Source: Methanocella sp. (GTDB taxonomy: Archaea > Thermoproteota > Bathyarchaeia > Bathyarchaeales > Bathycorpusculaceae). Taken from it: a DNA stretch of 38,434 nucleotides. The position numbers and the translations under genes were made by a program. Below are positions 17,454-37,409 of this stretch, one piece after another. Within the stretch, counting starts at the first letter, position 1; every line of letters starts with the position of its first letter. The stretch is from positions 1 through 38,434 of the forward strand of contig JBLNCY010000022.1 of the NCBI GenBank assembly GCA_050261115.1. The letters run 5' to 3'. The notes under the pieces were generated by a model that was given only the letters and a program-made list of their open reading frames with translations, searched no databases and was not told the origin of the DNA.

Positions 17454-17507
17454 TAAGTTGAACCCAAGGTTGACGCTATATATAGAGTCAACCACGGGTT
17501 CAACCTA
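17454..17507. repeat. Dispersed repeat site 1: B|B palindrome with TATATATA core (17477-17484)
   Basis: GTTGAACCC-aa-GGTTGAC-gc-TATATATA-ga-GTCAACC-ac-GGGTTCAAC, a near-perfect 48-bp inverted repeat. Confidence 0.9.
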
Positions 17508-17609
17508 CAAATGATTGGAATGCTCAGTTTTTCACTGGATAAGGTGCTAAGCAGTGTTGGGTAAAATTAAAAGGGGGCTTTAACCCATTAGGAGGTAACT
17601 GGAAGGAGA

Positions 17610-17990
17610 TTGAGTGCTGTGAGTGGTAATGGCGTTTCTGTTTCATATGAGCCCTTCAAAGAAATTGTGATTATGGAGAAGACCCGTTTTAATAATGCAG
17701 AGGAGATCGCCCGTTTTACGTCTGTGATTGCGGGGGGCAAGTTGGCGGGGCTTTACTGGGTTGAGGGCATAGTGTTTCTCTATTTCCCACTCACGGCTTC
17801 TAATGCCGTAGTTGCAAAGGAGCTCTTAGAGAAGCGTCGGGTTTATTGGACGTTTGTGGGATATGCGCCGATGCCAAAGTACACGCCGGCGATTGAGACT
17901 AAGGAGAAGATGATTGTTCCGGTAGTGGATATTTCGTCTGACCCGATTTTGCGGTCAGTTGCTTTGTGGCTAAAAGAACAGCCCTGCTAG
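17610..17990 (+). CDS. Conserved archaeal hypothetical protein
   Basis: Clean ORF with GGAG Shine-Dalgarno (YEPFKEIVIME...LYWVEGIVF...IVPVVD). Function not recognised. Confidence 0.7.
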   Translation: MSAVSGNGVSVSYEPFKEIVIMEKTRFNNAEEIARFTSVIAGGKLAGLYWVEGIVFLYFPLTASNAVVAKELLEKRRVYWTFVGYAPMPKYTPAIETKEKMIVPVVDISSDPILRSVALWLKEQPC

Positions 17991-18392
17991 ATGTGTGGCC
18001 GTTTGAGCCAAATATGCTTTAGGGGCACCGTCTTCACCGGCAAAGGCACTGGTAAACGGTTTGTTGATTTACCGTGGGTTAGGGCGCAGATGGAATCCAA
18101 GCTCGGCTTCTCACCCTTCAGCGGGACCCTAAACCTACACTTAACCACAGAAGAAGTTGAGAAAAGAAACCTTTTACCCCCCGAGCATGGCATCGTGATT
18201 ACGCCCCAAGACGGCTACCTCCCCGGCGTACTATTCCCCGCAAAAATTCAGGGCTTAGAGTGCGCTGTTGTCTTGCCACTGGTGCCCGGCTACCCCGAGG
18301 ACGTGTTGGAAGTGATTTCGCCGCATTACCTTAGGGGTAAACTGGGTTTAGTGGACAAAAAAGAAGTGACTGTTTGGGTTACAGTCTTTTAG
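17991..18392 (+). CDS. ribK: CTP-dependent riboflavin kinase (no N-terminal HTH)
   Basis: GTVFTGKGTGKRFV, LGFSPFSGTLN, VLEVISPHYLRGKLGL. Confidence 0.88.
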   Translation: MCGRLSQICFRGTVFTGKGTGKRFVDLPWVRAQMESKLGFSPFSGTLNLHLTTEEVEKRNLLPPEHGIVITPQDGYLPGVLFPAKIQGLECAVVLPLVPGYPEDVLEVISPHYLRGKLGLVDKKEVTVWVTVF

Positions 18393-19905
18393 GTTTGGTT
18401 TGCGCCTGGATGGGTGCCGCAGAGCTCTTAAACGCTTTAACGTAGCTTTCATAGGCACCGTGCTTTTGGAGGTACTCGCCGTAGAGGACAAGTGCTTTCA
18501 TGGCACGCGCTGCATCTTCGGGTGAACCGAAGGCGGGGACGTTTAAGCGGTCAAAGCGGCTTCTTGTGTAGAGGGCCATTTCAGTTTCGCCGATGTCGAC
18601 CATAACGAGGGGTTTGTGATAGACCTCAGTTAAGGCGGCTATGTCGTCGATGTACTTCTCCTTTAAGCCAGGCATGTGGTGTAGACCCAAGAGGATGATG
18701 CCATCGGTGTCAGGGTCCTGGAACATAATCTCTGCTGATATAGTGAATTGGTCATCGAGCACCGAGGCAGTCAAGTCCACGGGGTTATGCACAGCGGCGA
18801 TTGGCAGAATCTTGCCTTCTTGCTGGAGCTTTAGGAATTTCTCATGAGTTTCCTTGTTAAAGTGCTCAGCAGTCAAACCCTGCTCCTCAAGCTCATCAAC
18901 CGTCATGACTCCCGGTCCACCAGCATCAGTTAGGATACCGATGTTTCGGCCTAAAGCCGGCGGCTGCATCGCAAGAGCCTTGCCATAATCAAAGAATTCC
19001 TCCATGCTTTTTGCGCGGATGATGCCGCACTGCTCAAACACTGCATCATAAACTTTGTCAGAGCCTGCGATGGCGCCTGTGTGGCTTGCGGCGGCACGTG
19101 CACCGGCGTTGCTGCGACCTGACTTTATGACGACTACAGGTTTCTTTAGTGTAACTCTCTTGGCGACCTCTATGAAGCGGCGGCCGTCCTTGATGTCCTC
19201 AAGGTATACTAGGATGACTTTGGTTTCTTCGTCGTATTGTAGGTAATCGAGCATCTCGGCTTCAGAAACATCGCACTTGTTACCGAAGCTGACGAATTTG
19301 GAGACACCCATCTGGCGACCAGTCAAGTAGTCCAATGCCGCTGAACCGAATGCGCCGCTTTGGGTGATCATGGCAATGTTACCCGGCATCGGTCTGGGGG
19401 TAGCCACGACAGTCTCGCCGGTAGATAGCGTTTTTATTTCAGGTAAAAACAGCGTGTCGATGCCGCTTTTTGCGTAGAATACGCCGAGGCAGTTTGGACC
19501 AAGTAGGCGGATGTTGCCTTGCTTGGCGATGGCAACCACTTCGTCCTCCATTTCTTTATTGCCAATTTCTTTAAAGCCAGCGGTGATAATGACTGCCGCT
19601 TTAACTTTTTTCTCAACCGCTTCTTTCATGACAGCGGCAACAGCTTTGGCGGGGACAATAATTGTAACAAGATCAATTTGAGCTACAGGAATCTTGCTTA
19701 AAGATTCATAGCATCTAAATCCGAAAATCTCCTCTTCACCAGGGTTAACGGGATAGAGTTCACCTGTGAAGGTTCCACGTTCCTTATTTGTGGCTAAATT
19801 TTTACAGATGACGTAGCCCGCTTTACCAGCTTTCTTGGTGGCGCCGACGACTGCGACAGATTTAGGATTAAAGAATGCGTCTAATCGTTGTAGTGATTCT
19901 TCCAT
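18379..19905 (-). CDS. ADP-forming acyl/acetyl-CoA synthetase alpha subunit
   Basis: FFNPKSVAVVGA, ITAGFKE, GPNCLG, TQSGA, SFGNKCD, phospho-His ASHTGAIAG, NPVDL. No beta subunit adjacent. Confidence 0.9.
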   Translation of the reverse strand: MEESLQRLDAFFNPKSVAVVGATKKAGKAGYVICKNLATNKERGTFTGELYPVNPGEEEIFGFRCYESLSKIPVAQIDLVTIIVPAKAVAAVMKEAVEKKVKAAVIITAGFKEIGNKEMEDEVVAIAKQGNIRLLGPNCLGVFYAKSGIDTLFLPEIKTLSTGETVVATPRPMPGNIAMITQSGAFGSAALDYLTGRQMGVSKFVSFGNKCDVSEAEMLDYLQYDEETKVILVYLEDIKDGRRFIEVAKRVTLKKPVVVIKSGRSNAGARAAASHTGAIAGSDKVYDAVFEQCGIIRAKSMEEFFDYGKALAMQPPALGRNIGILTDAGGPGVMTVDELEEQGLTAEHFNKETHEKFLKLQQEGKILPIAAVHNPVDLTASVLDDQFTISAEIMFQDPDTDGIILLGLHHMPGLKEKYIDDIAALTEVYHKPLVMVDIGETEMALYTRSRFDRLNVPAFGSPEDAARAMKALVLYGEYLQKHGAYESYVKAFKSSAAPIQAQTKPKRL

Positions 19906-20011
19906 ATGCTGATCCCTTTATTTCCGCATAGTGCGTGCAACGCAATTTTTATGTCTTACTATCCGAAATGCCATTTTCCGCTAAGCTGACATCAATATTT
20001 AACAAAAAAAT

Positions 20012-20854
20012 TCAGTCAAGCCGTCTTACAATAACCAAAGGCTTATGCCCAACAGACCCCAACATCTCCCAAGTCACCGACTCAAGGCCCGCACCAAACC
20101 GCGCCGCCATATCCCAAACCGTTGCCCCCGACCCTGGCCCCCGTGCCCGATCCGCAACATTAGTAACCGACAACGCTTCACCCGCACTCAAGCGGCAGCC
20201 ATAAACCGCCAAAGGAGTCGAACTTCGCCTAAACCCCAACAGTCGCCCCAGCACATACGACGCCACACCCCCAAAAGAATAGATGCCCCGCAACGGATAC
20301 GGCCGAGGCGTGAAGTAGAAGTTCCGGAAACGGTAAGTTTTGTCGGTATCAGCGATTATCACGCAGACCCGTCGACCAAGCCGCATCCAGATAGCATGTG
20401 CAATTTCTTCGGCAAAGACGTCTTTGTCAGGCAAAGGCAAGCTAACATAGCTGTAGGGCAGGTTGGAGCCGTCGATTCCTGCTTCGGAGCCAAACAGTAG
20501 CGCCTGCAAAAGCCCGCCCCTTTCAAGCGCAACCTGCTTATGCCGACTCCCCGACTCCAATGGATAGCTACGTAGTCTTGCTAGCAGTCTTGGCCCAAAT
20601 CCGCATAGTATCCCAAGCGGGTAGCCCCATACATGGCGCATCCAAAACCCCGCGATGAACCGGGCGGTTCTGCAAGGCACCACAGGGGCTTCGTCGATGA
20701 TTCGCCCAGTGGCTATGGCCAACGCCTTCTCTGAGACCACCACATAGTCGCCGTCGCAGAGTTTGCCCTCCAGTGCCAGGGTTATTTTGTTGAGGTAGTC
20801 TTCGCCTGGTTTCCAGTAACTGGTCCTGACCGCTAAAGCTGCATACCTACTCAT
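20012..20854 (-). CDS. CofE-like (F420:gamma-glutamyl ligase family) protein
   Basis: GDYVVVSEKALAIATG, EAGIDGSN, VIIADTDKTY. These are CofE-fold motifs in a divergent subfamily. Confidence 0.78.
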   Translation of the reverse strand: MSRYAALAVRTSYWKPGEDYLNKITLALEGKLCDGDYVVVSEKALAIATGRIIDEAPVVPCRTARFIAGFWMRHVWGYPLGILCGFGPRLLARLRSYPLESGSRHKQVALERGGLLQALLFGSEAGIDGSNLPYSYVSLPLPDKDVFAEEIAHAIWMRLGRRVCVIIADTDKTYRFRNFYFTPRPYPLRGIYSFGGVASYVLGRLLGFRRSSTPLAVYGCRLSAGEALSVTNVADRARGPGSGATVWDMAARFGAGLESVTWEMLGSVGHKPLVIVRRLD

Positions 20855-20910
20855 GGGGGCGTCTACTGATGCAAAACCCGTCTTGCCCTAATAAGACTAA
20901 TCAATAAAAG

Positions 20911-21972
20911 CTAAGCCAGATTTACTAGCCCCGCTTCTTTAGCTAACTGCTGCGCCCGCGCCACCTCCGCATCCGTGAGCCGTCGCCGAAGCTCAGGCAC
21001 CTCATAGGCACGCCATTCTGGACGGTACTGAAACATCAAATTCACCCGCGTTTCCACACCCAAGTTAGCGGCTATCCAGTCAAGTATCGGTTTGGTGCAG
21101 CATCCCAGATGCCCCGGCAACACCAACACCCTCAGCAACAACTCACCGTATTGTTTAGCTTTGAGCAGATTATGTGTGGCTACCTGCCAGTAGTTCGGAG
21201 TACCCGATAGCTTCTCTGCGCAACTGCCGGGGCCGTACTTGAAATCCAGCAGATAAACATCCGCAAACCCCGCCAGCAACTCCGCGGTCTCTGGGCTATA
21301 ATAGGCGTTAGAGTTCCACACTATGGGCATGTTCACATCTACAATTCGGAAGGTGTCCAGCCAGTGCCCTAGCCATGGCGTAGGTTCTCCGCCAACCAAG
21401 TTTATGTTGCGACAACCAGCCATATGCAGGTCTTTAACTTCTTTTGCAAGCTCCTGAGGCGAATAGCTCAATGGGGCTTCTTGCCATTGCGATATAGTCC
21501 AATTCTGGCAGTGTAGACACCGAATAGTACAGCCCATAGTAAATACAGTGCCTGAGAGGACAAGCTCCGGCTCCTCACTAGTATGCGCAAAAATGCTTGA
21601 AACAGCCAGATCATTGCCACAGCCACAATAGCCCAACTGACCAACCAATCGGTTTACTCCACACCGACGACTGCAAAAGGCGCAGTGTTCAAGCATCTTA
21701 CTGGCGACTGTTAATTTCAAATCTAAATATGACTTCTTTGGGCTGCCGGTTAAGGCAGCGTTCTTGCTGTCTAGTTGGCGCTCAAAAGCATAGTATTCCC
21801 TGGTGTATTCTGTGTGTTGCTTGAGAAGCGTTTCCAAAGTATCTTGTTCTGAGAAGTCAGCCGCGACTTTTTTGGCTATCAAGAATTTTGCCCGCTTCTC
21901 TTTCCCAACGACGGCAAAGTATCTAGCCAAACTTTTCCGTACCAGTGCATCAGAAAACGGTTCTTTTCTCAT
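20911..21972 (-). CDS. Radical SAM protein, PflX-like
   Basis: CAFCSRRCGVNR..G..GYCG, EEPELV.SGTVF.GCTIRCLHCQNWTISQ, NINLVGGEPT, VNLMFQYRP. Confidence 0.88.
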   Translation of the reverse strand: MRKEPFSDALVRKSLARYFAVVGKEKRAKFLIAKKVAADFSEQDTLETLLKQHTEYTREYYAFERQLDSKNAALTGSPKKSYLDLKLTVASKMLEHCAFCSRRCGVNRLVGQLGYCGCGNDLAVSSIFAHTSEEPELVLSGTVFTMGCTIRCLHCQNWTISQWQEAPLSYSPQELAKEVKDLHMAGCRNINLVGGEPTPWLGHWLDTFRIVDVNMPIVWNSNAYYSPETAELLAGFADVYLLDFKYGPGSCAEKLSGTPNYWQVATHNLLKAKQYGELLLRVLVLPGHLGCCTKPILDWIAANLGVETRVNLMFQYRPEWRAYEVPELRRRLTDAEVARAQQLAKEAGLVNLA

Positions 21973-21990
21973 CGGTCCTCGCTTAACAAT

Positions 21991-23052
21991 TTAGAATAGG
22001 GCATAGGGGAATCTTTGGTGGTTTTGATATGGTTTGCCTCTTATTGGGATTTGTTGTCCACACACTGGGCATTTGTAATCCTCTGTTAGGTTCCATTGAG
22101 TGATGTCAAAACCGTAACGTCGGATGACAGCGGTGTCGCAGTTGGGGCAGTAAGTGTTCTCCGCCGCGTGCCCAGGCACATTACCCAAATAGACATAGCG
22201 TAAGCCCTGGTTTTTGGCTGTTAGTAACGCTTGCTCCATAGTTTGAACGCTCGTTGCGGGAATCGTGGTCATCTTGTACTCCGGATGGAACCGTAGCAAG
22301 TGCAGGGGCGTATCGGCTCCCAAGTTGTCGTGTACCCAAGCGGCTAACTCGCGTATTCTATCCATAGAGTCACCCGATCGGGGAACAACTAGGTTAGTGA
22401 GTTCTATGTGGACGCCGCTTAAGCGGAGCTCTTTTAGTGTTTCAAAGATGGGTTTAACGTCTGGAACGCCCATGACGGACTTGTAGAAGTCAGGGTCAGC
22501 ACCGCCCTTAAAATCAACCGTAGCTGCATCGAGGTAGGGAGCGATTGTTTTCACGGCTTCAGGGGTCATGTAGCCGTTGGTTACAAACGTGTTGAATAGC
22601 CCCGCTTCCTTGGCGAGTTTTGCCGTGTCATAGGCGTACTCCATGAACATGGTGGGTTCAGTGTAGGTGTAGCTTATGCCTTGGCAGCCGGCATTCTGGG
22701 CGGCTTTGACGATTTCTTCTGGTGACATGGGGTTACCGGGAGCTTCGCGGTCTTGGCTTATCATCCAGTTGTCGCAGAATTGGCAGCGGAAGTTGCATCC
22801 CGCAGCCGCAAAGCTGAGCACCAGCGCGCCGGGGTTGAAGTGTGAGAGGGGCTTTTTGCCGATGGGGTCTACGCCTACGGAGACGGCTCTGCCGTAGTTT
22901 AGGGTGTAGAGGGTGCCGCCTTCGTTTCTGCGCACCAGGCAGAAGCCGGGGGCTCCATCGCTGATTAGGCAGCGACGCGAGCAGAGGCAGCATTTGACTT
23001 TACCTTCGTCTTGGCGGGTGTAGAGCATGGCTTCGTGATGCGAATGAGACAT
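21991..23052 (-). CDS. amrS: AmmeMemoRadiSam system radical SAM enzyme
   Basis: CCLCSRRC.I..G..GFCLVR, DPIGKKPL.HF.PG, GCNFRCQFCDNW.ISQ, YTYTEP, RFHP.Y, YVYLGNV, TYCPNC...CPVCG. Confidence 0.88.
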   Translation of the reverse strand: MSHSHHEAMLYTRQDEGKVKCCLCSRRCLISDGAPGFCLVRRNEGGTLYTLNYGRAVSVGVDPIGKKPLSHFNPGALVLSFAAAGCNFRCQFCDNWMISQDREAPGNPMSPEEIVKAAQNAGCQGISYTYTEPTMFMEYAYDTAKLAKEAGLFNTFVTNGYMTPEAVKTIAPYLDAATVDFKGGADPDFYKSVMGVPDVKPIFETLKELRLSGVHIELTNLVVPRSGDSMDRIRELAAWVHDNLGADTPLHLLRFHPEYKMTTIPATSVQTMEQALLTAKNQGLRYVYLGNVPGHAAENTYCPNCDTAVIRRYGFDITQWNLTEDYKCPVCGQQIPIRGKPYQNHQRFPYALF

Positions 23053-23179
23053 AACGTGTTCACAAAGAAGATAAAGTCCCTCGGTTTAAAAGGATATACT
23101 AACTATTGAGCATGGCCGCAGATATTTTTTAGGTAGTGTTATAAGCTAAATTTAACCAAATAACCGATAGGGGTTTAGC

Positions 23180-23596
23180 TTGCAGACAAAAATTCTTGTT
23201 GTCGTCATAGTTGGTTTAATTTTGGCTGTTTCAGTTTTAAGCGTTGCATTTGTTTGGTTTTATTTATCTACAACCCAAAGAGAAAAGGTTCCCTTGGCTT
23301 ATGAGGGTCAAATGATTATGATTGAAAACAGCACCTATGCTACTATGGCAGTTAACTTTAAAGTGGACAAGGGAGTGCGCTATGATTGTGTAGCCACAGT
23401 GACTTACACTGCTACCAACGGATCGCAAGTGCAAATCACCAAAGAGTTGGGTTTACTAAGCGTAAGCACTAACGGTATGGGTACAGGCTTTCAGTTAATG
23501 GAGTACTCATCAGAAAATCCGTTTCTGGTTAGTTTCTCGAATAATAACCCCTTGCCTAATGTGCATATAGACGCATATGGATACACTAAACCTTAA
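23180..23596 (+). CDS. Hypothetical membrane-anchored exported protein
   Basis: N-terminal hydrophobic helix followed by a beta-rich domain with N-x-T/S sequons. TTG start and upstream TTATAA box. Confidence 0.65.
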   Translation: MQTKILVVVIVGLILAVSVLSVAFVWFYLSTTQREKVPLAYEGQMIMIENSTYATMAVNFKVDKGVRYDCVATVTYTATNGSQVQITKELGLLSVSTNGMGTGFQLMEYSSENPFLVSFSNNNPLPNVHIDAYGYTKP

Positions 23597-23905
23597 TTCA
23601 CCCAAGCTGCCGATAACATTAGAAGGGTTTTTGTTGCTATAGATTAGCCATTGTCGCTCTCTTATTTTTTTAAAAAAAAAATATTTTTTTTTTAGGGCGA
23701 TGGGGGCGCCTTCCGGGTTTAGCCTTCGTGTGGGGTGATGTTTTTTTTGCGGTTGTCGTCGTCTCCATATGGTTCATCTGGATCCTTGGGTTGGATGCCT
23801 CGCCGGCGCTTATTGTATGTAAAATAAAGGTTTAGAAAAAACCTTGCCCTTTTTCGGCAATATGGCGTACCCACCATTACCGCTTTTTTTTTTAAAAAAA
23901 AAATA

Positions 23906-24238
23906 TTATAATAGTTTGTTATAGAAGCAGCTGTATTCGCCTGTGTGGCAAGCTGGACCTGTCTGCTCAACAACATATAGTAATGAATCATAGTCGCAGT
24001 CAGTTGTCACGGAAATGACTTTTTGTGTGTGGCCGCTGGTTTCGCCCTTTATCCAGAGTTCGTTTCTGCTGCGGCTCCAGTAGGTGGCTTTGCCTGTCTT
24101 GAGTGTTAATTCTACGGCTTCTTTGTTGGCGTAGGCTTGCATTAGAACCTCTTTGGTTTTTGCGTCCTGAGTGATGACCGGAATGAGGCCATTGCCCTTG
24201 TTGAAGTCTAGCTTTGCAAGTAGCTCTATAGATGTCAT
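23906..24238 (-). CDS. hisI: Phosphoribosyl-AMP cyclohydrolase (monofunctional)
   Basis: [35 protein letters not shown]. No HisE domain. Confidence 0.95.
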
Positions 24239-25038
24239 TATCGGATAGTCACCCCCATTTTACGCAAGTAATCCTTAACGACCGGTACAGGATACTGGTT
24301 GTAGTGGAAAATCGACGCAGCTAACGCTGCATCCGCTTTGCCCTCCACAAAGACATCATAGAGGTGCTTTGGAACGCCTGCTCCTCCTGATGCGATAACT
24401 GGAACATTGACACGCTCGGATATGGCGCGGGTTAATTCGATGTCATAGCCGTCTTTGGTGCCATCACAATCCATCGACGTTACAAGAAACTCACCTGCGC
24501 CTAGCTTCTCAGCTTGCATAGCCCACGCCACAGCGTCGATGCCTGTTGGTTTGCGTCCCCCATAGGTGTTGACTTCAAACCAGACTTTGCCCTCGGGTGT
24601 GTCGAAGAGTAGTTTTCCCTCTGTGGGTGTGTGGTTGCGTTTGGCGTCTATGGCGACGACGACGCATTGGCGGCCAAATACGTCCGCTAAGTCTGTTATG
24701 AGCTGTGGTTTGTCGATGGCTGCGGTGTTAACGGAGACTTTGTCGGCCCCGCTGCAGAGCACATTGCGGGCATCCGACACGGTGCGTATGCCGCCTCCGA
24801 CAGTGAAGGGTATGCTTATGGCTCTGGCGACGCCTTCTACGTATTGGCGCATTATGTCGCGCTTCTCATGAGAAGCGGTGATGTCAAGGAACACGAGTTC
24901 ATCGGCGCCTTCATCAGAGTAGCGTTTAGCCAACTCGACGGGGTCACCTGCTTGCTGAAGTTGGAGGAAATTTATGCCCTTGACTACTCGTCCATGGTCA
25001 ACGTCAAGGCAGGGTATGATACGTTTTGCTAGCGGCAT
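24238..25038 (-). CDS. hisF: Imidazole glycerol phosphate synthase cyclase subunit
   Basis: [48 protein letters not shown]. Confidence 0.96.
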
Positions 25039-25040
25039 CT

Positions 25041-25766
25041 TTAGGCTCCTATTTTGGTTAAGGCTTCTTTTAGTGTGAATCGTTCCTCATATAGGGCTTT
25101 GCCGATGACAGCGCCACTGCAACCGATGCCCTTGAGCGCTGCAAGGTCGCCTATGCTGCCGATTCCGCCAGCCGCAATGACTTTAACGCCTTCATAGAGC
25201 ACTGCGCGGCTTAGCGTTTGCAGGTCAGGTCCACTTAGCATGCCATCTTGCGCTATAGAGGTTATCAAGAAGGTTTCCACACCTAGCTGGGCGTATTTGT
25301 AGAGTGCATCATCAACGGTAATGGCGGTTTCGGTTTGCCAGCCCTCCACCATGATGCGTCCATCTCGGTTATCAAGCGCGACAACAACAGAGTCGGGACC
25401 AAAGCGCCCCTGAATCTTTGTGATTACCGAGGGATCGCTAACGGCTAATGAGCCTAGGATAACTTGTGCGACGCCGGTTTTGAGCAGGTTCTCTGCTGCT
25501 TCGTAGCTGCGTATGCCTCCACCGACTTGGATGGGTAGCGAAATGTTTTTGGCTATTTCAGCGATTACTTCTCGGTTGTCGCCTATGCCGAATGCTGCAT
25601 CGAGGTCTATTATGTGAAGTTTACCTGCACCTTCCGTTTTCCATCTTTCTGCGGCTTGGAGGGGTGTGCCGAATTTGGCTTCGTAGCTTATGGCGGTTTC
25701 TGCTTTGCCCTTGGTTAAGCGAACTATTTTTCCGCCCATCAAGTCTATTGCTGGAATTAACTGCAT
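25041..25766 (-). CDS. hisA: ProFAR isomerase
   Basis: [45 protein letters not shown]. Confidence 0.95.
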
Positions 25767-25775
25767 ACCATTTTT

Positions 25776-30356: not shown

Positions 30357-30549
30357 TAATCTCACCAATTTTGTTTAGAGAGTTGTCTAATGTTTTTTGT
30401 TTTGCTAAGAGAACGTTTTGCGGGGGATTAGCGTCTAATTTACAGTAATAAAATCGTGTTAGGCTTTCAATGAAGGCAATCGCCTTGTATGAACGCAATC
30501 CCTCATCATACGTCACTGGTGACACCTCAATGCTTACCTTGCATATAAA
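30357..30549 (-). promoter_or_regulatory. his operon promoter (TTTATATG at 30549-30542) and ~165-nt structured leader
   Basis: TATA-like box far upstream of the hisG start. The leader contains several inverted repeats and short uORFs (see findings). Confidence 0.45.
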
Positions 30550-30965
30550 CCTGCCCACTAGTATTTAACTCTGGAATAGGCGCTGAGTGCTAATTTGTGG
30601 CTGTTTTGCAATCTTTTATTTCAAAAACAAGCGGAACCATAGAGTTTCGGGTTTCTAACTCTACAGTAAGCAAGCCTTCAAGGAGGCCCCGCCATATTTC
30701 GGCGTCGTTGATGAATGGGCTTTTTATGAGTAGAACTTGTCTCTTTGGTAGAGGTCGCCTAGCCCTTGGACCTTGAGACGTTTGAAGATGTGCACACAGT
30801 TTTCTTGTTTTGGGGCGTCAACACCAATGGTTGATTGGATGGATATTCTAAGAGCATCATGGGTGTTCCGACTTTGTGCCATTTCTTTTTTGGGACATAT
30901 TTGGGAAGATGTTTATCATTTCTACGTTGATTATGCTATGCTGCTTATTCCGCACACTAAACCGA

Positions 30966-31018
30966 CCTAAAACCCATACCATTGACTCTATATATAAGGG
31001 AGGGGTAGGTGCAGAGCA
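30966..31018. repeat. Dispersed repeat site 2: B|A with TATATATA core (30989-30996)
   Basis: CCTAA.AACCCA....TTGACTC-TATATATA-AGGGAGGGGT....GCAGAGCA. The left side matches the site-1 arm next to the core and the right side matches the site-3/4 arm. Confidence 0.85.
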
Positions 31019-31158
31019 CAGTATAGAAGCCTGTAGAGTAGCTGTGTTTTAGTTAGCCTTAATCGGTCTGTGTGGTTGGTGGGGTTTTGGGTTGTGGCTA
31101 GGAATTGTTAATAACTTGTCTTTTCAAGAGGGTATCAAACAACTGGAAGGCATGTAGT

Positions 31159-32202
31159 TTGTCTCTTAGTCTGAATTTAGAGAAACTTTCCAACGCTCAA
31201 GGCGTTACTGGCAGAGAAAATATAGTTCGAGAACTCCTAGAAGATATGCTCAAACCTTTAAGTGACGAAATCTACGTTGACCGATTGGAAAACATTATCG
31301 CAATAAAGAAGGGACGGGCTGATGCGCCTAAAGTTATGCTTGCGGCGCACATGGATGAAGTCGGCTTGATGGTAAAAAACATCACCAAAGACGGTTTTCT
31401 ACAGTTTTCAAAGCTAGGCGGCATCGATGACCGTATCCTGACGGCTCAGCGGGTGATCGTTTATAGCAAAGAACAATCCTACCCCGGCGTGGTTGGTTCT
31501 AAGCCGCCTCACATTCAAAAGGAAGAAGAACGGAAAAAAGTCATCAACTACGACGACCTATTCATTGACGTCGGCGCCAATAACAAAGCTGAGGCAGTCG
31601 CCATGGGCATCGCCATCGGTGACCCCATCGCGTTTGATGTGGCCTACACTAAGCTGGCCAACGGTAATGTTATGGGTAAGGCTTTTGATAACCGTGCAGG
31701 ATGCGCCGCAATGGTGGAAACCCTGAGGCTTCTGCAGGATTGTGACTGCACAATTTATGCCGTTGGCACGGTGCAAGAAGAGGTTGGATTGCGCGGTGCA
31801 GGAACGGCAGCATACGCTATTGACCCCGACTTCGCGTTAGCACTCGACGTTACCATCGCAGGTGATGTGCCTGGTGTTAGAGAGAACGATACCAGCGTAA
31901 AACTCGGCAAAGGACCCGCCCTAACGCTTTCTGATTCAGGCATAATTACCCACCCAAAGATTACGCGCTGGATACTTGACACCGCCAAAGAAGCAAAAAT
32001 ACCCCTTCAGCTCGAGACAGGATTACTGGGCAGCACCGACGCGGCACGCATCAGCCTCACACGTCAAGGCATACCCGCAGGGGCCCTCAGCATACCCACA
32101 CGCTACATTCACAGCCCCGCAGGCATCCTAAACCTCACCGACCTCGAGAACACCGCCAAACTCGCAGCCTCAGCCATCAAACAAGCAACCAAATACTTCT
32201 AA
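31159..32202 (+). CDS. M42 family (TET-type) metalloaminopeptidase
   Basis: AAHMDEVG, LGGID, GKAFDNRAG, VQEEVGLRGA, ALDVT, GSTDA, RYIHSP. Start is probably TTG 31159. Confidence 0.93.
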   Translation: MSLSLNLEKLSNAQGVTGRENIVRELLEDMLKPLSDEIYVDRLENIIAIKKGRADAPKVMLAAHMDEVGLMVKNITKDGFLQFSKLGGIDDRILTAQRVIVYSKEQSYPGVVGSKPPHIQKEEERKKVINYDDLFIDVGANNKAEAVAMGIAIGDPIAFDVAYTKLANGNVMGKAFDNRAGCAAMVETLRLLQDCDCTIYAVGTVQEEVGLRGAGTAAYAIDPDFALALDVTIAGDVPGVRENDTSVKLGKGPALTLSDSGIITHPKITRWILDTAKEAKIPLQLETGLLGSTDAARISLTRQGIPAGALSIPTRYIHSPAGILNLTDLENTAKLAASAIKQATKYF

Positions 32203-32337
32203 CAAACCTTATGTGTTGGTTATGTTTGGTGGCTATTCAAGCTACCTCTTTTTCTCAACCGCCCACTTAGCCGCGGCTGTTTTTGCGCAATCGTTTTTTA
32301 ACTTCTTTGTTATCTTTTGAGTCGCAGTGGCGAAACC

Positions 32338-32853
32338 ATGGGTAAACAAGAAAAACAGGAAAAAATAGTCAAAACAACGCCGGAAGCAACATCGAAACCT
32401 AAACCAGCAAAGGCAGACAAATTCGCCGGCAAATTCGAATTCCTAGAACACACCGCAGACGTCTACGTTCGCGCTTTTGGCGAAAAGATGTGGGATGCCT
32501 ATGAGAACGCCGCGTTGGCCATGTTTGAAACCATGACAGATACAAGCAAAGTCGCGCCTACAGTTGAGTTGGCTTTTGAGGTTGAAGCCGAAGACCAGTA
32601 TGCTCTGCTCTATAACTGGCTTGAGACATTGCTTGTAAAGTTCGAGACCGAGGGACTGCTATTTAGCAAATTCACCGTAGAACACTGGCGGGAGACACCT
32701 GAGGGGTTCAAGTTTGAAGCCAAAGTCTGGGGCGAAAAATTCGACCCCAAAAAGCATCCACAAAAAGTTGCTGTAAAAGCGGTAACGTATCATTTGATGA
32801 TGGTTATCCGAGAAGCAGACAAAGTAATCCTTGAATTTGTACTAGACATCTAA
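32338..32853 (+). CDS. Archease
   Basis: FEFLEHTADV, ENAALAMF, VKAVTYH and C-terminal LDI, with a Lys-rich N-terminal extension. Confidence 0.92.
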   Translation: MGKQEKQEKIVKTTPEATSKPKPAKADKFAGKFEFLEHTADVYVRAFGEKMWDAYENAALAMFETMTDTSKVAPTVELAFEVEAEDQYALLYNWLETLLVKFETEGLLFSKFTVEHWRETPEGFKFEAKVWGEKFDPKKHPQKVAVKAVTYHLMMVIREADKVILEFVLDI

Positions 32854-32882
32854 AAGAAAGGAGAAGAGGAAAAACTCTTCTT

Positions 32883-33536
32883 TTAGGCAAATCCGAGCTT
32901 TTTGAGTTCACCCATCATATGCTCAACCATCGGTTCAGGTGGTTGGTCGATGGATTTGGTGACGTTCACGACAAAGGGTAGGCCTTTCTGCTTGTAGTAG
33001 GCGACTACCGGTTCGGTTTGGGTCTTGTAGACTTGTAGGCGGTTCCGTATGACGGCTTCGTTGTCGTCTGCACGTTGGTAGAGTTCGCCGCCGCATTTGT
33101 CGCATTTGCCTTCAACTTTGGGTTTAAGGAAGCGGATGTTGTAGACGGTGCCGCAGTTTTTGCAGATTCGGCGCGAGGTTAAGCGTTCAACGATGATTTG
33201 GTCGGGGACGTCTAGCATTAAGATGACGTCGATTTTGGCGATTTTCTCAAGTGCTTCTGCCTGGGCGATGGTGCGTGGGAACCCGTCTAGGAGGAAGCCT
33301 TTGCCTTGGGGGACTTTGCTGAGGCGTTCTTTTAGGACTTCGACGACGACTTCGTCGGGAACTAAAGCGCCCCGCTCGACGTAGGATTTTACTTTTGTGC
33401 CGAGTTCGGTGTTTTGTTTGACGGATTCACGGAAGATGTCGCCCATGGCGATGACGTCTACGCCAAGCTGATTCTGCATCCTTGTTGAGTAGGTGCCTTT
33501 GCCTGCGCCTGGCGCTCCAAAGATAATAGCGTTCAA
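32883..33536 (-). CDS. adk: Adenylate kinase (bacterial-type, zinc LID)
   Basis: GAPGAGKGT, MGDIFR, G.LVPD, LDGFPRT, CKNC...CDKC, QRADD. Confidence 0.95.
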   Translation of the reverse strand: MNAIIFGAPGAGKGTYSTRMQNQLGVDVIAMGDIFRESVKQNTELGTKVKSYVERGALVPDEVVVEVLKERLSKVPQGKGFLLDGFPRTIAQAEALEKIAKIDVILMLDVPDQIIVERLTSRRICKNCGTVYNIRFLKPKVEGKCDKCGGELYQRADDNEAVIRNRLQVYKTQTEPVVAYYKQKGLPFVVNVTKSIDQPPEPMVEHMMGELKKLGFA

Positions 33537-33644
33537 CTTGAGTTTTCACCTGTTAATGGGTCGTATACAGAGCATTTGATAATTAAGGTTTGTCATCTCC
33601 CGAGCGTTTTCTATGGTTGCGGTTGTGGCTATAGGGTTAGGCGC

Positions 33645-33710
33645 CTGCTGCTTTGCCCAGAGACCGCCTCCCTTATATATAAGGGAGGGGGGTCACTTTG
33701 AGAGCAGCAG
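33645..33710. repeat. Dispersed repeat site 3: A|A palindrome with TATATATA core (33674-33681)
   Basis: Perfect 22-bp palindrome CCTCCCT-TATATATA-AGGGAGG (33667-33688), extended by GACC/GGTC and CTGCTGCT/AGCAGCAG. Confidence 0.9.
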
Positions 33711-34014
33711 AAGTAACCTTTCTATCCGCTAGGTGAGTTCTTGGTGGGTTAGGTGGGTTTTTTGGGGTAGTCTTTGCATTCGTAGATGCGTAGTTGTCGC
33801 TGGGGTTCTATTCGGCAGCGTTTGCGGCTGTTTTTGCGTTTTAGGATGGGTGGGAGTTGGAAGAATGGGCATTTGGAGCAGAGGGTACTCATTTTTTTGT
33901 CTCCTGTTGTTTGTTGTTGGTTCTGGTTGGGGCCATTCTATTCTCCTCTAAGGTTATATTATTGAATGCAATATATAGCGGCAAGATATAAGTATTCCCT
34001 AAAACACTATAGAA

Positions 34015-34602
34015 ATGAACCATATGAAGCCAGACAGCCAGGACAAAACCACACAAAGCTGGATAAAAGAAGCCCAAAAAGGCTACATCCGCCTAGGCGT
34101 CCTCATACTCCTAAGCAAAAAACCCGCCCACGGCTATGAACTGATGAAGGAAATCGACCAGCGTACCCAGGGCTTCTGGCGACCCACCGCAGGCGGAGTC
34201 TACCCCATCCTAAACAACCTCGAGAACGCAGGCTTCATCAAGGGACATTGGGAAACACAAAAAAATCGACGACTAAAAGTCTACACCATCACCCCCTCAG
34301 GCGACGCCATCCTAAAACGCGCCATACGCAAACAAGCAGAAATCTTCAACAACCTAAGCAGCCTCTTCAACGAATTCGCCCGAGACGTCCTACACATACA
34401 AGAAACCATTCCCACGCCCACCCCGCCCTCACCGTTCACGCCGTTTTTAGAAGACAAAAACAGCCAAACAACCCTTCAACAACTCGAAGTCCAGCGCAAA
34501 CTTCTCACAGACCACCTAAGAACGGTTCGAGAACAACTAAACGCCACTGACGCAAAAATCGTCCAACTCAAAAAACAGTCAAACCCTGACTCAGAGCAGT
34601 AG
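34015..34602 (+). CDS. PadR family transcriptional regulator
   Basis: LILLSKKPAHGYELMKEI...PTAGGVYPILNNLE..G.I...KVYTITPSG, with a C-terminal coiled coil. Confidence 0.9.
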   Translation: MNHMKPDSQDKTTQSWIKEAQKGYIRLGVLILLSKKPAHGYELMKEIDQRTQGFWRPTAGGVYPILNNLENAGFIKGHWETQKNRRLKVYTITPSGDAILKRAIRKQAEIFNNLSSLFNEFARDVLHIQETIPTPTPPSPFTPFLEDKNSQTTLQQLEVQRKLLTDHLRTVREQLNATDAKIVQLKKQSNPDSEQ

Positions 34603-34661
34603 TGGTTGGTTAATGGTTTAAATTTACGTTATTGCTATCCTCTAGCAAGGAGAGAATACGC

Positions 34662-34985
34662 TTGTTCCGCGTTAGAGTCAACAAAATCGAATCCACCCGC
34701 GACTTAGACGGCAATCTGGGAAAAAGAATCGAACTACTAGAAGAACGCGAAGTCAACCCCTACATTCTCAGACCCCAAACTGACGAAGCAAAAATGGCCC
34801 AAGACATCCTGCAGGCCCTTCAGACACAGATGCCCTTCCTGCCCCAGCGCCAACAAATGGCGACACCAAAAATCGTCCTTTTCCTAACTGAACACGAATA
34901 CGATAGCCTCGGCATCGTCTTTGACGTCAACCAGGTCTACGAGGTTTTGCTTGAGAACCAAACAATAAGGTTTAGGAAAGTTTAA
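34662..34985 (+). CDS. Arcadin-1-like protein
   Basis: RVRVNKIE..RDLDGNLGKRIEL.EE...PKIVLFLTEHEYDSLG..FDVNQVYE resembles arcadin-1 as I recall it (not verified by search). TTG 34662 follows a GGAGA Shine-Dalgarno. Confidence 0.65.
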   Translation: MFRVRVNKIESTRDLDGNLGKRIELLEEREVNPYILRPQTDEAKMAQDILQALQTQMPFLPQRQQMATPKIVLFLTEHEYDSLGIVFDVNQVYEVLLENQTIRFRKV

Positions 34986-35307
34986 GCAGCTCACTACGCA
35001 TCGAAGCCAACCCACGATGCTTCGGATGGAAAGACAACACAAACATCATGTGCCGCAAGGCACTGCTTATTTCTTCATAACCAACAATTTTACCCTCATC
35101 ACAGTACAGCGGTATCGGCTCCCCCTCGTCTTCTTCATAGTAGACATAGATAGGGGTGCTTTGGCGCTCGAATCGCACAACCTCAAAGTCGAGGTTCAAC
35201 CGTTTAGCTGTTTCTTTTGCTGCATCCCGCACGGAGTCTAATCGATTATTACTCGGCAGACCGGTGGGGGTGTAAACCATGAGTTTTCCCGAGGAACCTT
35301 TAAACAT
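34972..35307 (-). CDS. Conserved archaeal hypothetical protein
   Basis: Likely start ATG 35307 (MFKGSSGKLMVY...PIYVYYE...EPIPLYCD...MMFVLSFHPKH) with a GGAGA Shine-Dalgarno. Confidence 0.7.
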   Translation of the reverse strand: MFKGSSGKLMVYTPTGLPSNNRLDSVRDAAKETAKRLNLDFEVVRFERQSTPIYVYYEEDEGEPIPLYCDEGKIVGYEEISSALRHMMFVLSFHPKHRGLASMRSELLKLS

Positions 35308-35463
35308 ATACGCATCTCCAATCAGCATTTGCACTCGGTTCGCATTTAAGTCAACCCAGAAAGCGACTCGCCCATGCAGGAGAGGGGTAACTGAAAGTGA
35401 ATGATGTTGACGTATTAAGGTTGCCACAACAGCTTAAACAAGACATTAAACTTCAATTCAACC

Positions 35464-35931
35464 ATGACTTCTCTGCAGCAAACAGAGCACCCCTACTGGT
35501 GGTACCGCGAAAGCCGCCCCAAAAGCGACAACGCATACTTTGAGAACCTCTGCCGAGTCATCTTCCAGACAGGCCTTAACTGGGCAATCGTTGAGAAAAA
35601 GTGGCCAACCATAAAAGCCGCATTCTGCAACTTCGACGTTGAGCGAGTCGCCGCCTTCACCCAAACCGACATAGAACGCCTGCTGTCTGACAAAGGCATC
35701 ATTCGAAACATCTACAAGATCCATGCAATAATAGAAAACGCCAAACAGTTCCGCCAAATCAGACAACAGTACGGATCCTTCCGCGCCTACATAGACAGCT
35801 TTGACAAGTCAGACAATTACGCCCAGGTAGTTAAAGCCCTCTCAGACCGCTTTGAACGAATAGCATCAACCACGGCGGCGCTATTCCTCTACTCGGTTGG
35901 AGAAAACATCACGCCCCAACGTATGTATTAA
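35464..35931 (+). CDS. tag: DNA-3-methyladenine glycosylase I family protein
   Basis: DNAYFENL...IFQTGLNWAIVEKKW..IKAAF.NFD...VA, IIRN..KI.AIIENA. Short form lacking the N-terminal Zn motif. Confidence 0.85.
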   Translation: MTSLQQTEHPYWWYRESRPKSDNAYFENLCRVIFQTGLNWAIVEKKWPTIKAAFCNFDVERVAAFTQTDIERLLSDKGIIRNIYKIHAIIENAKQFRQIRQQYGSFRAYIDSFDKSDNYAQVVKALSDRFERIASTTAALFLYSVGENITPQRMY

Positions 35932-35957
35932 AATAGGGTAGAGAAACCAAGAGAATT

Positions 35958-36236
35958 ATGGCAAAAACCAGAGCACATGTCTACGTAACCGGCAAAGTCC
36001 AAGGAGTATTCTTCCGCCAAAACACCAAACGCCAAGCACAATCTTGGGGCGTTACGGGCTGGGTTAGAAACCTTGAGGATGGCCGTGTAGAGGCTGTTTT
36101 TGAGGGTGAAGAGGACGCGGTTAGTGCGGTGGTAGAGTTCTGCAAGGTTGGCCCCAAGGCCGCTGAAGTCACCGACATCGCGATCGATTGGGAGCCCTAT
36201 CGCGGTGAATTCCAAGCGTTTAGCATTGTTTACTAA
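35958..36236 (+). CDS. acyP: Acylphosphatase
   Basis: GKVQGVFFR, GWVRNLEDGRVEAVFEG, GP..A.V. Confidence 0.95.
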   Translation: MAKTRAHVYVTGKVQGVFFRQNTKRQAQSWGVTGWVRNLEDGRVEAVFEGEEDAVSAVVEFCKVGPKAAEVTDIAIDWEPYRGEFQAFSIVY

Positions 36237-36283
36237 GTCATTTAACGGTAAATTAAAATGCGAAGAGCTGCCATTGGTTTGGT

Positions 36284-36817
36284 ATGAGAATTTTGGGTTT
36301 AGTCGGCAGCCCCCGAAAAGGAAGCAACACTGATTTGCTGGTTTCCGCAGTCCTTGCAGGGGCAGGCGAGAAGCATTCAACCCAGAAAATCTACCTCTAT
36401 GACGTCGAGATCGCTCCATGTGTTGATTGTCGGGCCTGCAAAAGGGGCAGCCTGCAATGCATACTAAAAGACGGCATGCAAGAACTCTACGGTAAGCTCG
36501 AAGAAGCCGATGTGGTGGTTTTTGGGACGCCGCTTTACTGGTATGGCCCATCAGCTAAGATGAAGCTCCTAATTGATCGGTTGCGGCCCTTCATTGAATC
36601 CAAGAAACTTAAGGGTAAGCGCGCAGTGGTGGTGGTTCCCTCTGAGGAAGGCGCAGAAGCCTGCAGCCACATCGTTGGCATGTTCAACTTGTCCCTAAAG
36701 TATCTCGAAATGAACCTAATTGGTGCATTGTTACCCCGGGCTTCTGAGAAAGCAGAGGTAAAGTCCCAACCACACACAATAGAAGAGGCGCAATCGTTAG
36801 GCAGGCACATCAAGTAG
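36284..36817 (+). CDS. Flavodoxin-like iron-sulfur flavoprotein / NAD(P)H-dependent FMN reductase family
   Basis: GSPRKGSNT, PCVDCRAC.....C..KDGM, GTPLYW..S.KMK.LIDR. Confidence 0.88.
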   Translation: MRILGLVGSPRKGSNTDLLVSAVLAGAGEKHSTQKIYLYDVEIAPCVDCRACKRGSLQCILKDGMQELYGKLEEADVVVFGTPLYWYGPSAKMKLLIDRLRPFIESKKLKGKRAVVVVPSEEGAEACSHIVGMFNLSLKYLEMNLIGALLPRASEKAEVKSQPHTIEEAQSLGRHIK

Positions 36818-36825
36818 CGCAGATT

Positions 36826-37302
36826 CTAGGTTTTCTTTTTGGGGATTCTGAAGTGGCTGTCCTTGCCTGCGCTTATGTATTCTCCGCCCATGCCGCGCGA
36901 GGCTGCTGCGATTTTAGCAAAATTTTCACTACCTAGGAACTGTTTGGGTTTTATTATTATGTAGTCCCCTTTTTCTTCAAAACTTAGGCGTGCTTCGAGG
37001 TCTTCGGGGAAGGACATGCGGATGTCATCGAGGCTCCTTGTTTTGCCGACATCTGCCTGCGGTGTGATGGGTTGCGGTGTTGTTTTTGGTGCTGATGGGA
37101 TTGTCGGTTTGGCTGTCGAGGGTGCGGTGGTTGGGGGTTTGGTGACGGTTACTGTTGGGGGCTGAGTTATTTGGCTAATGGCCAGTGATTTTAAGGATGC
37201 CGAGACTGAGCGTAGTTCTTCTTGCATCTTAGAGATGGTTATGTTCATTTCTTCGATGCGTTTTAGAATCTTGTCGAGCTTTTCGGTGTCGGTACTGCTC
37301 AT
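36826..37302 (-). CDS. Hypothetical protein: coiled coil, Pro/Thr linker, small globular C-terminal domain
   Basis: N-terminal heptads, PT-rich linker, C-terminal FPEDL...IKPKQFLGSENFAKIA....GGEYISAGKDSHFRIP. GAGGT Shine-Dalgarno. Confidence 0.75.
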   Translation of the reverse strand: MSSTDTEKLDKILKRIEEMNITISKMQEELRSVSASLKSLAISQITQPPTVTVTKPPTTAPSTAKPTIPSAPKTTPQPITPQADVGKTRSLDDIRMSFPEDLEARLSFEEKGDYIIIKPKQFLGSENFAKIAAASRGMGGEYISAGKDSHFRIPKKKT

Positions 37303-37356
37303 GTAGGCGACCTCTTAACCCTAAATGCCTCCGACACCTAATAATTATTTCTAGGT

Positions 37357-37409
37357 TGCTCTGCCGAGAGACCCCCTCCCTTATATATAGAACCAACCAC
37401 GAGTTGAAC
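37357..37409. repeat. Dispersed repeat site 4: A|B with TATATATA core (37382-37389)
   Basis: TGCTCTGCCGAGAGACCCCCTCCCT-TATATATA-GAACCAACCACGAGTTGAAC. The right arm differs from the site-1 right arm GAGTCAACCACGGGTTCAAC at 4 of 20 positions. Confidence 0.9.

Follow-up and report, generated by a model that had tools for sequence, protein, structure and literature searches.

We found that four intergenic sites in a 38,434-nucleotide stretch of Bathyarchaeia DNA (the whole stretch analyzed, hereafter the window) share the self-complementary core TATATATA, and that each of the four coincides with a breakpoint of synteny with related genomes. The explanation that we favor, and to which we give about even credence, is that these sites belong to a single directional, lineage-restricted repeat of REP/MITE-like type whose copies recombine at or near the core. 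Across the genome, the family looks like a rearrangement hot spot, with copies mostly where gene order differs from that of relatives. The Bathyarchaeia are an abundant, mostly uncultured group whose genome dynamics are, to our knowledge, hardly known at all; our search of the literature on Bathyarchaeia and miniature inverted elements found no report of such repeats.

Structure of the repeat units

Exact TATATATA matches in the window start at positions 17477, 30989, 33674, and 37382 (four vs. 0.23 expected), and none of 100 shuffled versions of the window reached that number. An earlier note on this DNA had described the common core and the sequences of two arm types, A and B, both of which we confirmed, and had proposed that the arms are shuffled around the core in all four combinations. 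A/A and B/B sites do exist, once each, but the idea of free shuffling does not hold: throughout the 2.15-Mb genome (G000) the layout is that of one directional unit of 75–170 bp in about 107 copies, running from arm A through the core to a tail that is not A, and this order is kept in about 105 of 107 units. Since the tail opposite arm A is B-like (B, ~35 nt), C (~125 nt), or unique sequence, the A/B arrangement at site 4 and the B/A arrangement at site 2 are a single unit read on two strands. The unit consensus consists of a distal box (CTGTTGCTYTGCC or ..CTCAC), a linker, CCCCTCCCT, TATATATA, and GA[GAC][TC]CA.. followed by the B, C, or unique tail. A search with nhmmer using a model of arm A plus core (E≤1e-3) gave 108 matches, which represent 107 cores because site 3 was matched on both strands. 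The 79 genomic copies of TATATATA have arm A on one side only in 66 cases, on both sides in one (33674), and on neither in 12, although this last class reflects a strict test and includes several degenerate units as well as site 1. The earlier note had also asked whether arms occur without the core, and they essentially do not: all 80 matches of a B-only HMM lie beside a TATA-like core, solo A arms number just three and are truncated, and the 37 copies of the 125-nt C extension are each joined to arm A and core (35 to units with E≤1e-3 and two to weaker A matches, E=0.004 and 0.025). The B arm contains a short hairpin.

Left and right halves of the unit reassort freely, with A subtype and tail type in linkage equilibrium (chi-square, p=0.23). 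The core itself is variable: it is a perfect TATATATA in 67 G000 cores, with many copies deviating from it (TATACATA, TATGTATA, 6–10 nt), and in relatives it reads TTATATAA or TTATTTAA. The symmetry that the earlier note had ascribed to the core is thus true of the palindromic TATATATA at the four sites but not of the orthologous units in G102 and G113 (TTATTTAA or TTATTTAT, non-palindromic), nor of 26 out of 95 units, about a quarter, in G064 (TTATTTA variants). In the alignment, the unit ends (TCTGTTGC... and ...CTTGAA) are non-complementary and hence form no terminal inverted repeats, and no target-site duplication is visible in the flanks of aligned units. Variant cores differ between the members of a pair, as read from the match lists, which means that the core is no duplication common to the pair. 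Searches of Rfam 15 returned no match in the window at gathering thresholds and none at E≤1 in eight loci (four of them C-type), in keeping with the REP-like intergenic family that the earlier note had considered.

Units, gene blocks, and breaks in gene order

The four sites divide the window into five synteny blocks. Site 1 (17448–17513), at the junction of blocks I and II, is the sole B/B site in the genome, with a B' arm at 17448–17476, the core at 17477–17484, and a B arm at 17485–17513, and B-only HMM matches on either side of the core; in relatives for which both of its flanks are listed, these either are separated by 210–300 kb and lie on opposite strands or fall on separate contigs. 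Site 2 (30960–31025), at the junction of blocks II and III, is a single minus-strand unit (nhmmer match 31018–30982, E=1.1e-6) composed of a B-like tail (~30960–30988), the core (30989–30996), and A' (30997–31025); its tail is degenerate, as the earlier note had reported. Site 3 (33640–33713), at the junction of blocks III and IV, is the sole A/A site in the genome: arm A (33640–33673) and inverted arm A (33682–33713), which belong to different A subtypes, flank the core at 33674–33681. Site 4 (37355–37420), at the junction of blocks IV and V, is a canonical plus-strand unit (E=8e-14) with arm A at 37355–37381, the core at 37382–37389, and a B arm at 37390–37420. The A/A and B/B sites are 16.2 kb apart, and each consists of two non-identical arms. 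DNA contigs (Logan) from two studies span site 3, and the arrangement is fixed in these contigs.

Block II (17514–30959) contains the his operon and other genes and is collinear with G014, the reference relative (738.6 to 726.5 kb). Block III (31026–33639) encodes an M42 peptidase, archease, and adenylate kinase and has an inward-facing pair of units on its flanks. Block IV (33714–37354), with a PadR regulator and 5–6 small genes, forms a 3.7-kb cassette between inverted A arms. Blocks III and V adjoin in five relatives (G014, G050, G046, G003, and G075), in which block IV is absent from the interval between them, and no unit lies at the III–V junction in G014, G050, or G046. In G050, block IV directly precedes block II.

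The association with breakpoints, which the earlier note had suggested examining, extends to the whole genome: gene order breaks at 40 out of 53 spacers with a unit vs. 409 out of 1251 without one (OR 6.3, p=6.6e-10), a comparison based on crude ORF calls and on one relative, of which 75% of the genome was covered. Breakpoints are frequent in any case, occurring at 50% of unit-free spacers of at least 100 nt, and against such spacers (228 out of 457) the excess was smaller (OR 3.1, p=4e-4); stratification gave 40 observed vs. 30.4 expected breakpoints (CMH, p=0.005). Units are thus preferentially located where conserved gene blocks meet. Not every unit marks a rearrangement, since 13 out of the 53 that could be scored lie in conserved adjacencies, and several pairs flank segments that are collinear with G014 on both sides; the window also has three breakpoints without a unit (at ~1.1–2.1 kb, 3.45 kb, and 6.1–6.3 kb). 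Units and breakpoints may both simply favor operon boundaries.

Relative to G014, the unit is an insertion. In five out of seven strictly conserved adjacencies, the spacer with a unit is 96–215 nt longer than its counterpart, compared to a median difference of 0 for unit-free spacers, and the spacer of one convergent gene pair measures 6 nt in G014 and 120 nt in G000, where it contains a unit. The 2.0 Mb of G014 that was fetched has no match to either unit pattern; the other match-free relatives were checked at the window junctions only.

We propose that copies recombine in or beside the shared arm A and core, via homologous or microhomology-mediated exchange, which would swap the right-hand tails and move or invert the gene blocks between copies. 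In this view, a single head-to-head exchange, which the self-complementary core alone would permit, would have given rise to both of the unusual sites, A/A and B/B. The earlier note had likewise anticipated that two A/B sites could give A/A plus B/B, and the two unique sites are indeed made of four different arms, as such an exchange predicts. Block IV may once have been bounded as B'cA'..AcB (c, core) beside block II; its exit would have left a B'cB scar at 17477, and its re-entry at III-[AcB]-V would have created AcA' at 33674 and AcB at 37382. The I–IV adjacency that this model requires was seen in no relative examined.

Distribution among relatives and inward-facing pairs

Across 101 genomes, units show a near all-or-none distribution that is patchy over the genus, with 83 genomes having none. 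Where present, copies occupy orthologous positions across species of 70–79% DNA identity: for the units that border blocks III and IV, position and orientation are kept in three to five species that carry them, with distal boxes specific to each genome. The consensus is likewise kept in orthologous units of G000, G102, G113, G064, and G069 amid surrounding spacers that cannot be aligned, a pattern that points to selection or homogenization and for which a purely selfish repeat fails to account.

Units also occur as A-inward pairs. Their orientation alternates along the genome (55 vs. 18), and gaps between units in (−,+) order, with arm A facing inward, are far shorter than those in (+,−) order (n=33, median 5.3 kb vs. 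n=22, median 19 kb; p=8e-8), an asymmetry found in G064 as well (11.8 vs. 20.8 kb, p=0.0015). Conservation is higher for genes located inside pairs (RBH 140/195 vs. 902/1553; identity 77.5 vs. 73.6%), and the members of a pair are no more similar to each other than random copies. Recombination alone does not account for the excess of closely spaced A-inward pairs. This excess fits a reading that we consider rather unlikely overall, in which the unit is a boundary or architectural element: a lineage-specific factor (or TBP/TFB) would bind arm A and the TATA core, inward pairs would delimit conserved and probably highly expressed clusters, and the link with breakpoints would stem only from rearrangements being tolerated at boundaries. 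The pair asymmetry in both genomes, the conserved genes inside pairs, the retained positions with their genome-specific distal boxes, and the all-or-none distribution all speak for it, as does the closeness of arm A to stop codons (~0–25 nt). However, our analysis found no such factor, and TFB-domain counts do not track the units (four each in G064, G069, and G102, and eight in G014, which has no pattern match). RNA contigs (Logan) from two studies pass straight through whole units, which argues, as weak evidence, against tight terminators or insulators, and a boundary role alone leaves the unique A/A and B/B sites and the reassorted halves unexplained.

Search for a dedicated enzyme

Boundary function and strand exchange could also be combined. 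Units might be cassette-delimiting boundary elements at which a fast-evolving, lineage-specific factor reads the distal box and the CCCCTCCC-TATA module, and at which strands are exchanged at the core by this factor or by an associated nuclease or recombinase, so that cassettes are excised and reinserted; inward pairs would then bracket conserved clusters, like convergent loop anchors. We regard this combination as quite unlikely. If true, it would be a chromosomal gene-shuffling system without a described archaeal counterpart.

Decidedly improbable, in our assessment, is a dedicated site-specific recombination system in which a recombinase acting in trans reads the arms, exchanges strands in the core, and mobilizes cassettes between inverted A arms by excision and reinsertion. 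In every case the switch between arms falls at the core, and B'cB, AcA', and AcB would fit attB-like, attP-like, and hybrid products; other translocated cassettes are flanked by (−,+) pairs (C57 910–909k, C57 877–880k, and a single-gene, aquaporin-like cassette on C38), and the patchy distribution suggests dependence on a trans-acting factor. A recombinase tracking the motif, which the earlier note had suggested looking for, did not emerge from our searches, however. G000 (94.85% complete) gave no match to Y1/HUH (PF01797) in a search whose control matched six known genomes, no TnpB over the cut-off, and no protein family with at least three copies at 60% identity that would indicate a multi-copy transposase, bearing in mind that MAGs can lose IS copies. 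Its four to five tyrosine recombinases (PF00589) all have homologs of 28–52% identity in the fetched part of G014, which has no match to the unit patterns. Moreover, about 105 of 107 units lack inverted-repeat arms, cores differ in length and sequence within G000 and are non-palindromic in the G064 fraction and the G102 and G113 orthologs described above, several pairs flank resident collinear segments, and the presence of only one A/A and one B/B site means that antiparallel exchange is rare. Ordinary homologous or microhomology-mediated recombination over the ~45 bp of shared arm A and core would give the same signals.

Relation to genes and promoters

The core is the best TATA consensus of the genome, and 67 of its 79 TATATATA copies lie within units. 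Such sequences could serve as promoter modules from which some 100 small RNAs, non-coding or antisense, are transcribed, with arm A as an upstream or BRE-like box, the core as TATA, and the B or C arm (or A', in reverse) containing the transcript start, although we judge this highly improbable. Both arms have about the length of the archaeal TATA-to-start distance, and the random orientation of units relative to flanking genes (four classes, 22/22/19/19, with the same result for each tail type) would suit autonomous units. Against this, RNAalifold found no consensus secondary structure for the C arm on either strand, no Rfam match was obtained, G064 shows no conservation downstream of the core, and the flanks of units are G+C-rich, unlike those of ordinary TATA boxes here, which are A/T-rich and lie 40–60 nt from start codons. 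Three units have a core that RNA contigs read across; such contigs are weak evidence and show no starts. Halovirus HF2 is reported to carry intergenic repeats with promoters (PMC8707807), an analogous case that shares repeated intergenic position, AT-rich promoter-like motifs, and an archaeal setting; as described there, the HF2 repeats are viral and upstream of genes, whereas the units are chromosomal, randomly oriented, and apart from native promoters. That units are promoters of the flanking genes themselves can be rejected, given their random orientation and the native promoters beside them, which are separate from the unit and conserved with G014. For annotation, this means that the best TATA boxes of the genome are not gene promoters.

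Comparison with known systems and implications

The units resemble bacterial REP/BIME (REPIN) sequences in being short, present in high copy, strictly intergenic, species-specific in sequence, patchy among relatives, often located just past stop codons, and associated with rearrangements, and the B-arm hairpin adds to this likeness. They differ in having no RAYT/Y1 transposase, no palindromic doublet, a TATA-like core with a C-rich box, inward pairs spaced by kilobases, and an archaeal host. MITEs, such as the Correia elements of Neisseria and those of the archaea Sulfolobus and Haloquadratum, share the size, the copy number (~100), presence or absence at orthologous sites with empty sites in relatives, possible promoter-like sequence, and the character of a genome-plasticity hot spot. 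Unlike MITEs, the units have neither terminal inverted repeats, an autonomous partner, nor a visible target-site duplication, and they keep orthologous positions over the species distances given above. With loxP, FRT, and dif they have in common arms around a 6–8 bp center at which partners appear to have been exchanged and where a symmetric spacer permits both alignments. However, the arms of a unit are nearly always unrelated (66 out of 67 A-bearing TATATATA cores have arm A on one side only), the core varies in both length and sequence, and our searches of G000 found no cognate enzyme.

The repeat family provides a concrete marker of breaks in gene order in this genus and a natural setting in which to ask whether it is short dispersed repeats that drive the shuffling of gene blocks in archaea. 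The inward-facing geometry of pairs around conserved genes is puzzling and reproducible, and the all-or-none distribution should allow phylogenetic profiling to find a trans-acting partner, if there is one.

A directional repeat unit centred on a TATA-like core

We found that the intergenic repeat family proposed in the earlier note, which read it as two arms (A and B) shuffled around a symmetric core and possibly serving as recombination sites or a REP-like family, is real and larger than claimed. The core TATATATA is present in the window at 17477 (site 1, B|B), 30989 (site 2, B|A), 33674 (site 3, A|A), and 37382 (site 4, A|B), four copies versus 0.23 expected, and the flanks of all four read as described. 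The genome (G000; 2.15 Mb, 66 contigs, 47.4% G+C, the window being contig C22; adenylate kinase homologues labelled Bathyarchaeota, and Bathycorpusculum at 77% identity) holds 79 copies of TATATATA in total. Arm A lies on exactly one side of 66 of these, on both sides of one (33674), and, by a strict test, on neither side of 12, among them site 1 and degenerate copies. The arm itself is composed of ..CTGTTGCTYTGCC/CTCAC, then a linker, then CCCCTCCCT, and a profile built from arm A and the core matched the genome 108 times at E<=1e-3 and 121 times at E<=1. Directly past the core, almost all copies carry GA[GAC][TC]CA, behind which we observed three tail types: B (~35 nt, pattern GAGTCAACCnnnGGTTSAAC..CTTGAA), C (~125 nt), and unique sequence. 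All 37 C tails are attached to arm A plus core (35 on units at E<=1e-3 and two on weaker A matches), and their conserved 125-nt extension reads GACTCAGCAACCGCAG...GGGTGTTTGCTGG...GGCTGCACAACTG..GATAGAAA (e.g. loci L001 (C51:49400-50200), L002, L003, and L004). Every B arm likewise adjoins a TATA-like core; the exceptions to core attachment, for which the earlier note had proposed a search, are three truncated solo A arms (C60:4059-4085, C6:112838-112867, and C13:2904-2931) that end at or just short of the expected core start and may have been left behind by exchange or deletion at the core.

Since the A-bearing cores are nearly all one-sided and the tails are always joined to a core, sites 4 and 2 are the same directional unit on opposite strands. 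The claim of two arms in four combinations therefore gives way to one directional unit, while A|A and B|B do exist, as single exceptions. Both lie within the window, 16.2 kb apart, and because the two arms within each site differ, a self-templated (quasi-palindrome) origin is ruled out. G/T-rich motifs occur 50-90 nt past the inverted A arms of site 3 (GGTGGGTTAGGTGGGTTTTTTGGGG, window 33735-33765) and site 2 (GGTTGGTGGGGTTTTGGG, 31075-31100), and similar GT-rich runs are found in C tails and next to other units.

Synteny breaks at the units

BLASTN comparison with relatives split the window into blocks at all four cores. In the reference relative G014, block I (up to 17401) matches 424-438 kb, block II (17634-30848) 738.6->726.5 kb, block III (31182-33594) 660.3->658.0 kb, block IV (33759-37032) 753.2->758.7 kb, and block V (37979 onward) 657.4->656.95 kb. 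Block III adjoins block V in G014, G050, G046, G003, and G075, and in G050 block IV immediately precedes block II. The flanks of site 1 are adjacent in none of the relatives listing both, lying 210-300 kb apart or on separate contigs; with this separation and blocks II-V in four places, a single 16-kb inversion between sites 1 and 3 is ruled out, and relocation of block IV is the better fit. Three further breakpoints in the window carry no unit (~1.1-2.1 kb, 3.45 kb, and 6.1-6.3 kb; 6040-6300 was checked by eye).

We extended the comparison to the first 2.0 Mb (75%) of G014, using 1151 reciprocal best hits (median identity 74%). Breakpoints fell in 40 of 53 scorable unit spacers versus 409 of 1251 unit-free spacers (OR 6.3, p=6.6e-10), or versus 228 of 457 when the control was limited to unit-free spacers >=100 nt (OR 3.1, p=4e-4). 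Stratification by orientation class and length gave 40 observed versus 30.4 expected breakpoints (CMH p=0.005). The coincidence with synteny breakpoints that the earlier note had asked about thus holds in the window and genome-wide, as a genuine enrichment of moderate size; 13 units sit in conserved adjacencies. Contig ends, considered as a sign of strain variation, showed no significant excess near units (8 observed vs 4 expected within 600 nt, p=0.065).

Reassortment across the core

The A-arm subtypes (CAC, ACCTA, GAGGGA, and ATAGA) show no association with tail type (chi-square test, p=0.23), which indicates that halves have been swapped across the region of the core. The window can be read most simply by supposing that block IV was originally bounded by B'cA'..AcB (c, core; primes, inverted arms) next to block II, that its excision would have left B'cB (site 1), and that re-entry at a III-[AcB]-V junction would have produced AcA' (site 3) and AcB (site 4). 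Within this model, III-V and IV-II are ancestral adjacencies, and we infer the I-IV adjacency and a circular intermediate. For exchange in normal alignment, the ~45 bp of common A plus core would suffice; head-to-head products would require the self-complementary core and would be rare, at one event in ~107 units. The order seen today is also present in DNA contigs of two studies, and the species was detected in samples of sludge and digesters from 12 studies.

Distribution and conserved positions among relatives

The III-V junction is empty in relatives, without a unit. At strictly conserved adjacencies, the G000 spacer is 96-215 nt longer than that of G014 in five of seven cases, versus a median difference of 0 for unit-free spacers, and in one convergent gene pair a 6-nt spacing in G014 corresponds to 120 nt in G000, where a unit separates the genes. 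For the 18-mer CCCTCCCTTATATATAGA (<=1 mismatch) we counted 49 copies in G000, two in G007, and none in 39 other relatives. A looser pattern is found in G000 (42), G064 (68), G069 (46), G113 (31), G102 (24), G075 (18), and G050 (5), with zero matches in 83 of 101 genomes of the genus; the other carriers have CCCCTCCC-TTATATAW-AGA in common, and their distal boxes are genome-specific. Block II identity to G000 descends from G113 (79%), G050 (78%), G064 and G102 (77% each), and G014 (75%) to G046 (74%), G075 and G067 (72% each), G069 (70%), and G003 (69%); judged by these values, the carriers are not simply the nearest relatives.

Some positions are nevertheless shared. At the adenylate-kinase end of block III, a unit occupies the orthologous place in like orientation in G000, G102, and G113, and is absent in G064 and G075. 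For block IV, the right end is likewise occupied in G000, G113, G102, and G069, as well as in G064 when judged from coordinates. Upstream of block III, G102 also carries an inward-facing unit, from its own subfamily; the spacer there is not alignable between G000 and G050, whose unit 590 nt away is not counted as orthologous. Tandem units were also seen: two upstream of the adenylate-kinase start codon in G102 (L151), and two of different subfamilies, 15 nt apart in equal orientation, in G113 (L044, G113:C1:60000-62000, at ~950-1060).

Inward-facing pairs

Successive units along contigs alternate in orientation (55 vs 18, p=1.7e-5), and gaps with A arms inward (-,+; n=33) have a median of 5.3 kb versus 19 kb for (+,-) gaps (n=22; p=8e-8). 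The window holds two such pairs, 30993-33677 and 33678-37385. This geometry is new. In G064, which carries a different subfamily, we observed a like spacing asymmetry (11.8 vs 20.8 kb, p=0.0015), with alternation not significant (47 vs 36); in G113, gaps tallied by eye (7 vs 7) show the same trend. The pairs enclose ordinary genes, in one case a lone aquaporin-like gene, and these are more conserved than the remainder; some segments are collinear with G014 and others are translocated cassettes. Local duplication was rejected as the source, as pair members are no closer in sequence than random copies. The core as a target-site duplication was likewise rejected, as partner units have, on inspection, different variant cores. 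The inward-facing pairs and the conserved positions of units among genomes make a boundary or architectural role a serious competing explanation.

Candidate enzymes and relation to transcription

A dedicated recombinase system acting on the units is possible but unsupported. Tyrosine recombinases are present in G000 and have homologues in G014. The Pfam searches, which covered Y1 transposases (none found in G000), TnpB (none over the cut-off), and tyrosine recombinases, yielded no specific candidate; the linked recombinase or HUH gene suggested in the earlier note did not emerge. No multi-copy protein family was found in G000, and an extra TFB paralogue as partner was rejected, as TFB-domain counts do not follow the units.

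Unit orientation relative to flanking genes (crude ORF calls) is A-toward/B-away in 22, toward/toward in 22, away/away in 19, and away/toward in 19 cases, with 18 further units within short ORFs and eight at contig edges; these orientation counts equal random expectation, as do those of each tail type. Ordinary TATA boxes of the genome lie 40-60 nt upstream of start codons in A/T-rich flanks, and at two units the gene's own promoter, conserved with G014, lies between unit and gene; together with the random orientation, this rules out the unit as an ordinary promoter of adjacent genes. RNA contigs of two metatranscriptome studies span site 3 and the C42 and C16 copies in full, so units are transcribed through, unless the libraries contain DNA. 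An intrinsic terminator is rejected by this and by T5 runs, which are neither enriched nor depleted beside units (26% vs 31%), and a structured ncRNA in the C arm by RNAalifold, which found no structure on either strand, as for shuffled columns; an Rfam search of the window and unit loci matched no family. RNA contigs cannot reveal starts, and stretches without cover are uninformative; the contigs gave no usable transcript start or end near units. The X7 joints 17504->26136 and 31005->37357, with sides <30 nt, derive from other repeat copies.

Near site 2, RNA contigs of two studies end at 30501 and 30504, 485 nt from the site, and a TTTATAT box belonging to the his operon itself lies at 30549-30543 (minus strand), ~25-45 nt upstream of these ends. 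The operon seems to start ~150 nt ahead of hisG (30501-30550, minus strand), implying a long leader that might have a regulatory role. A T10A10-type palindrome, CTTWTTTTTTTAAAAAAAAAATATT, is present twice at an offset of 222 nt (23661-23685 and 23883-23907); public DNA contigs break there, the region was skipped as a repeat in contig mapping, and the copies may act as paired bidirectional terminators or mark a variable site.

For comparison we drew on REP/RAYT, Correia elements, loxP/dif, Tn10-type precise excision, and convergent loop anchors. Overall, the units form a directional repeat family, REP/MITE-like and centred on a TATA core. It marks the boundaries of gene blocks and is very probably involved in their shuffling via exchange at or near the core.
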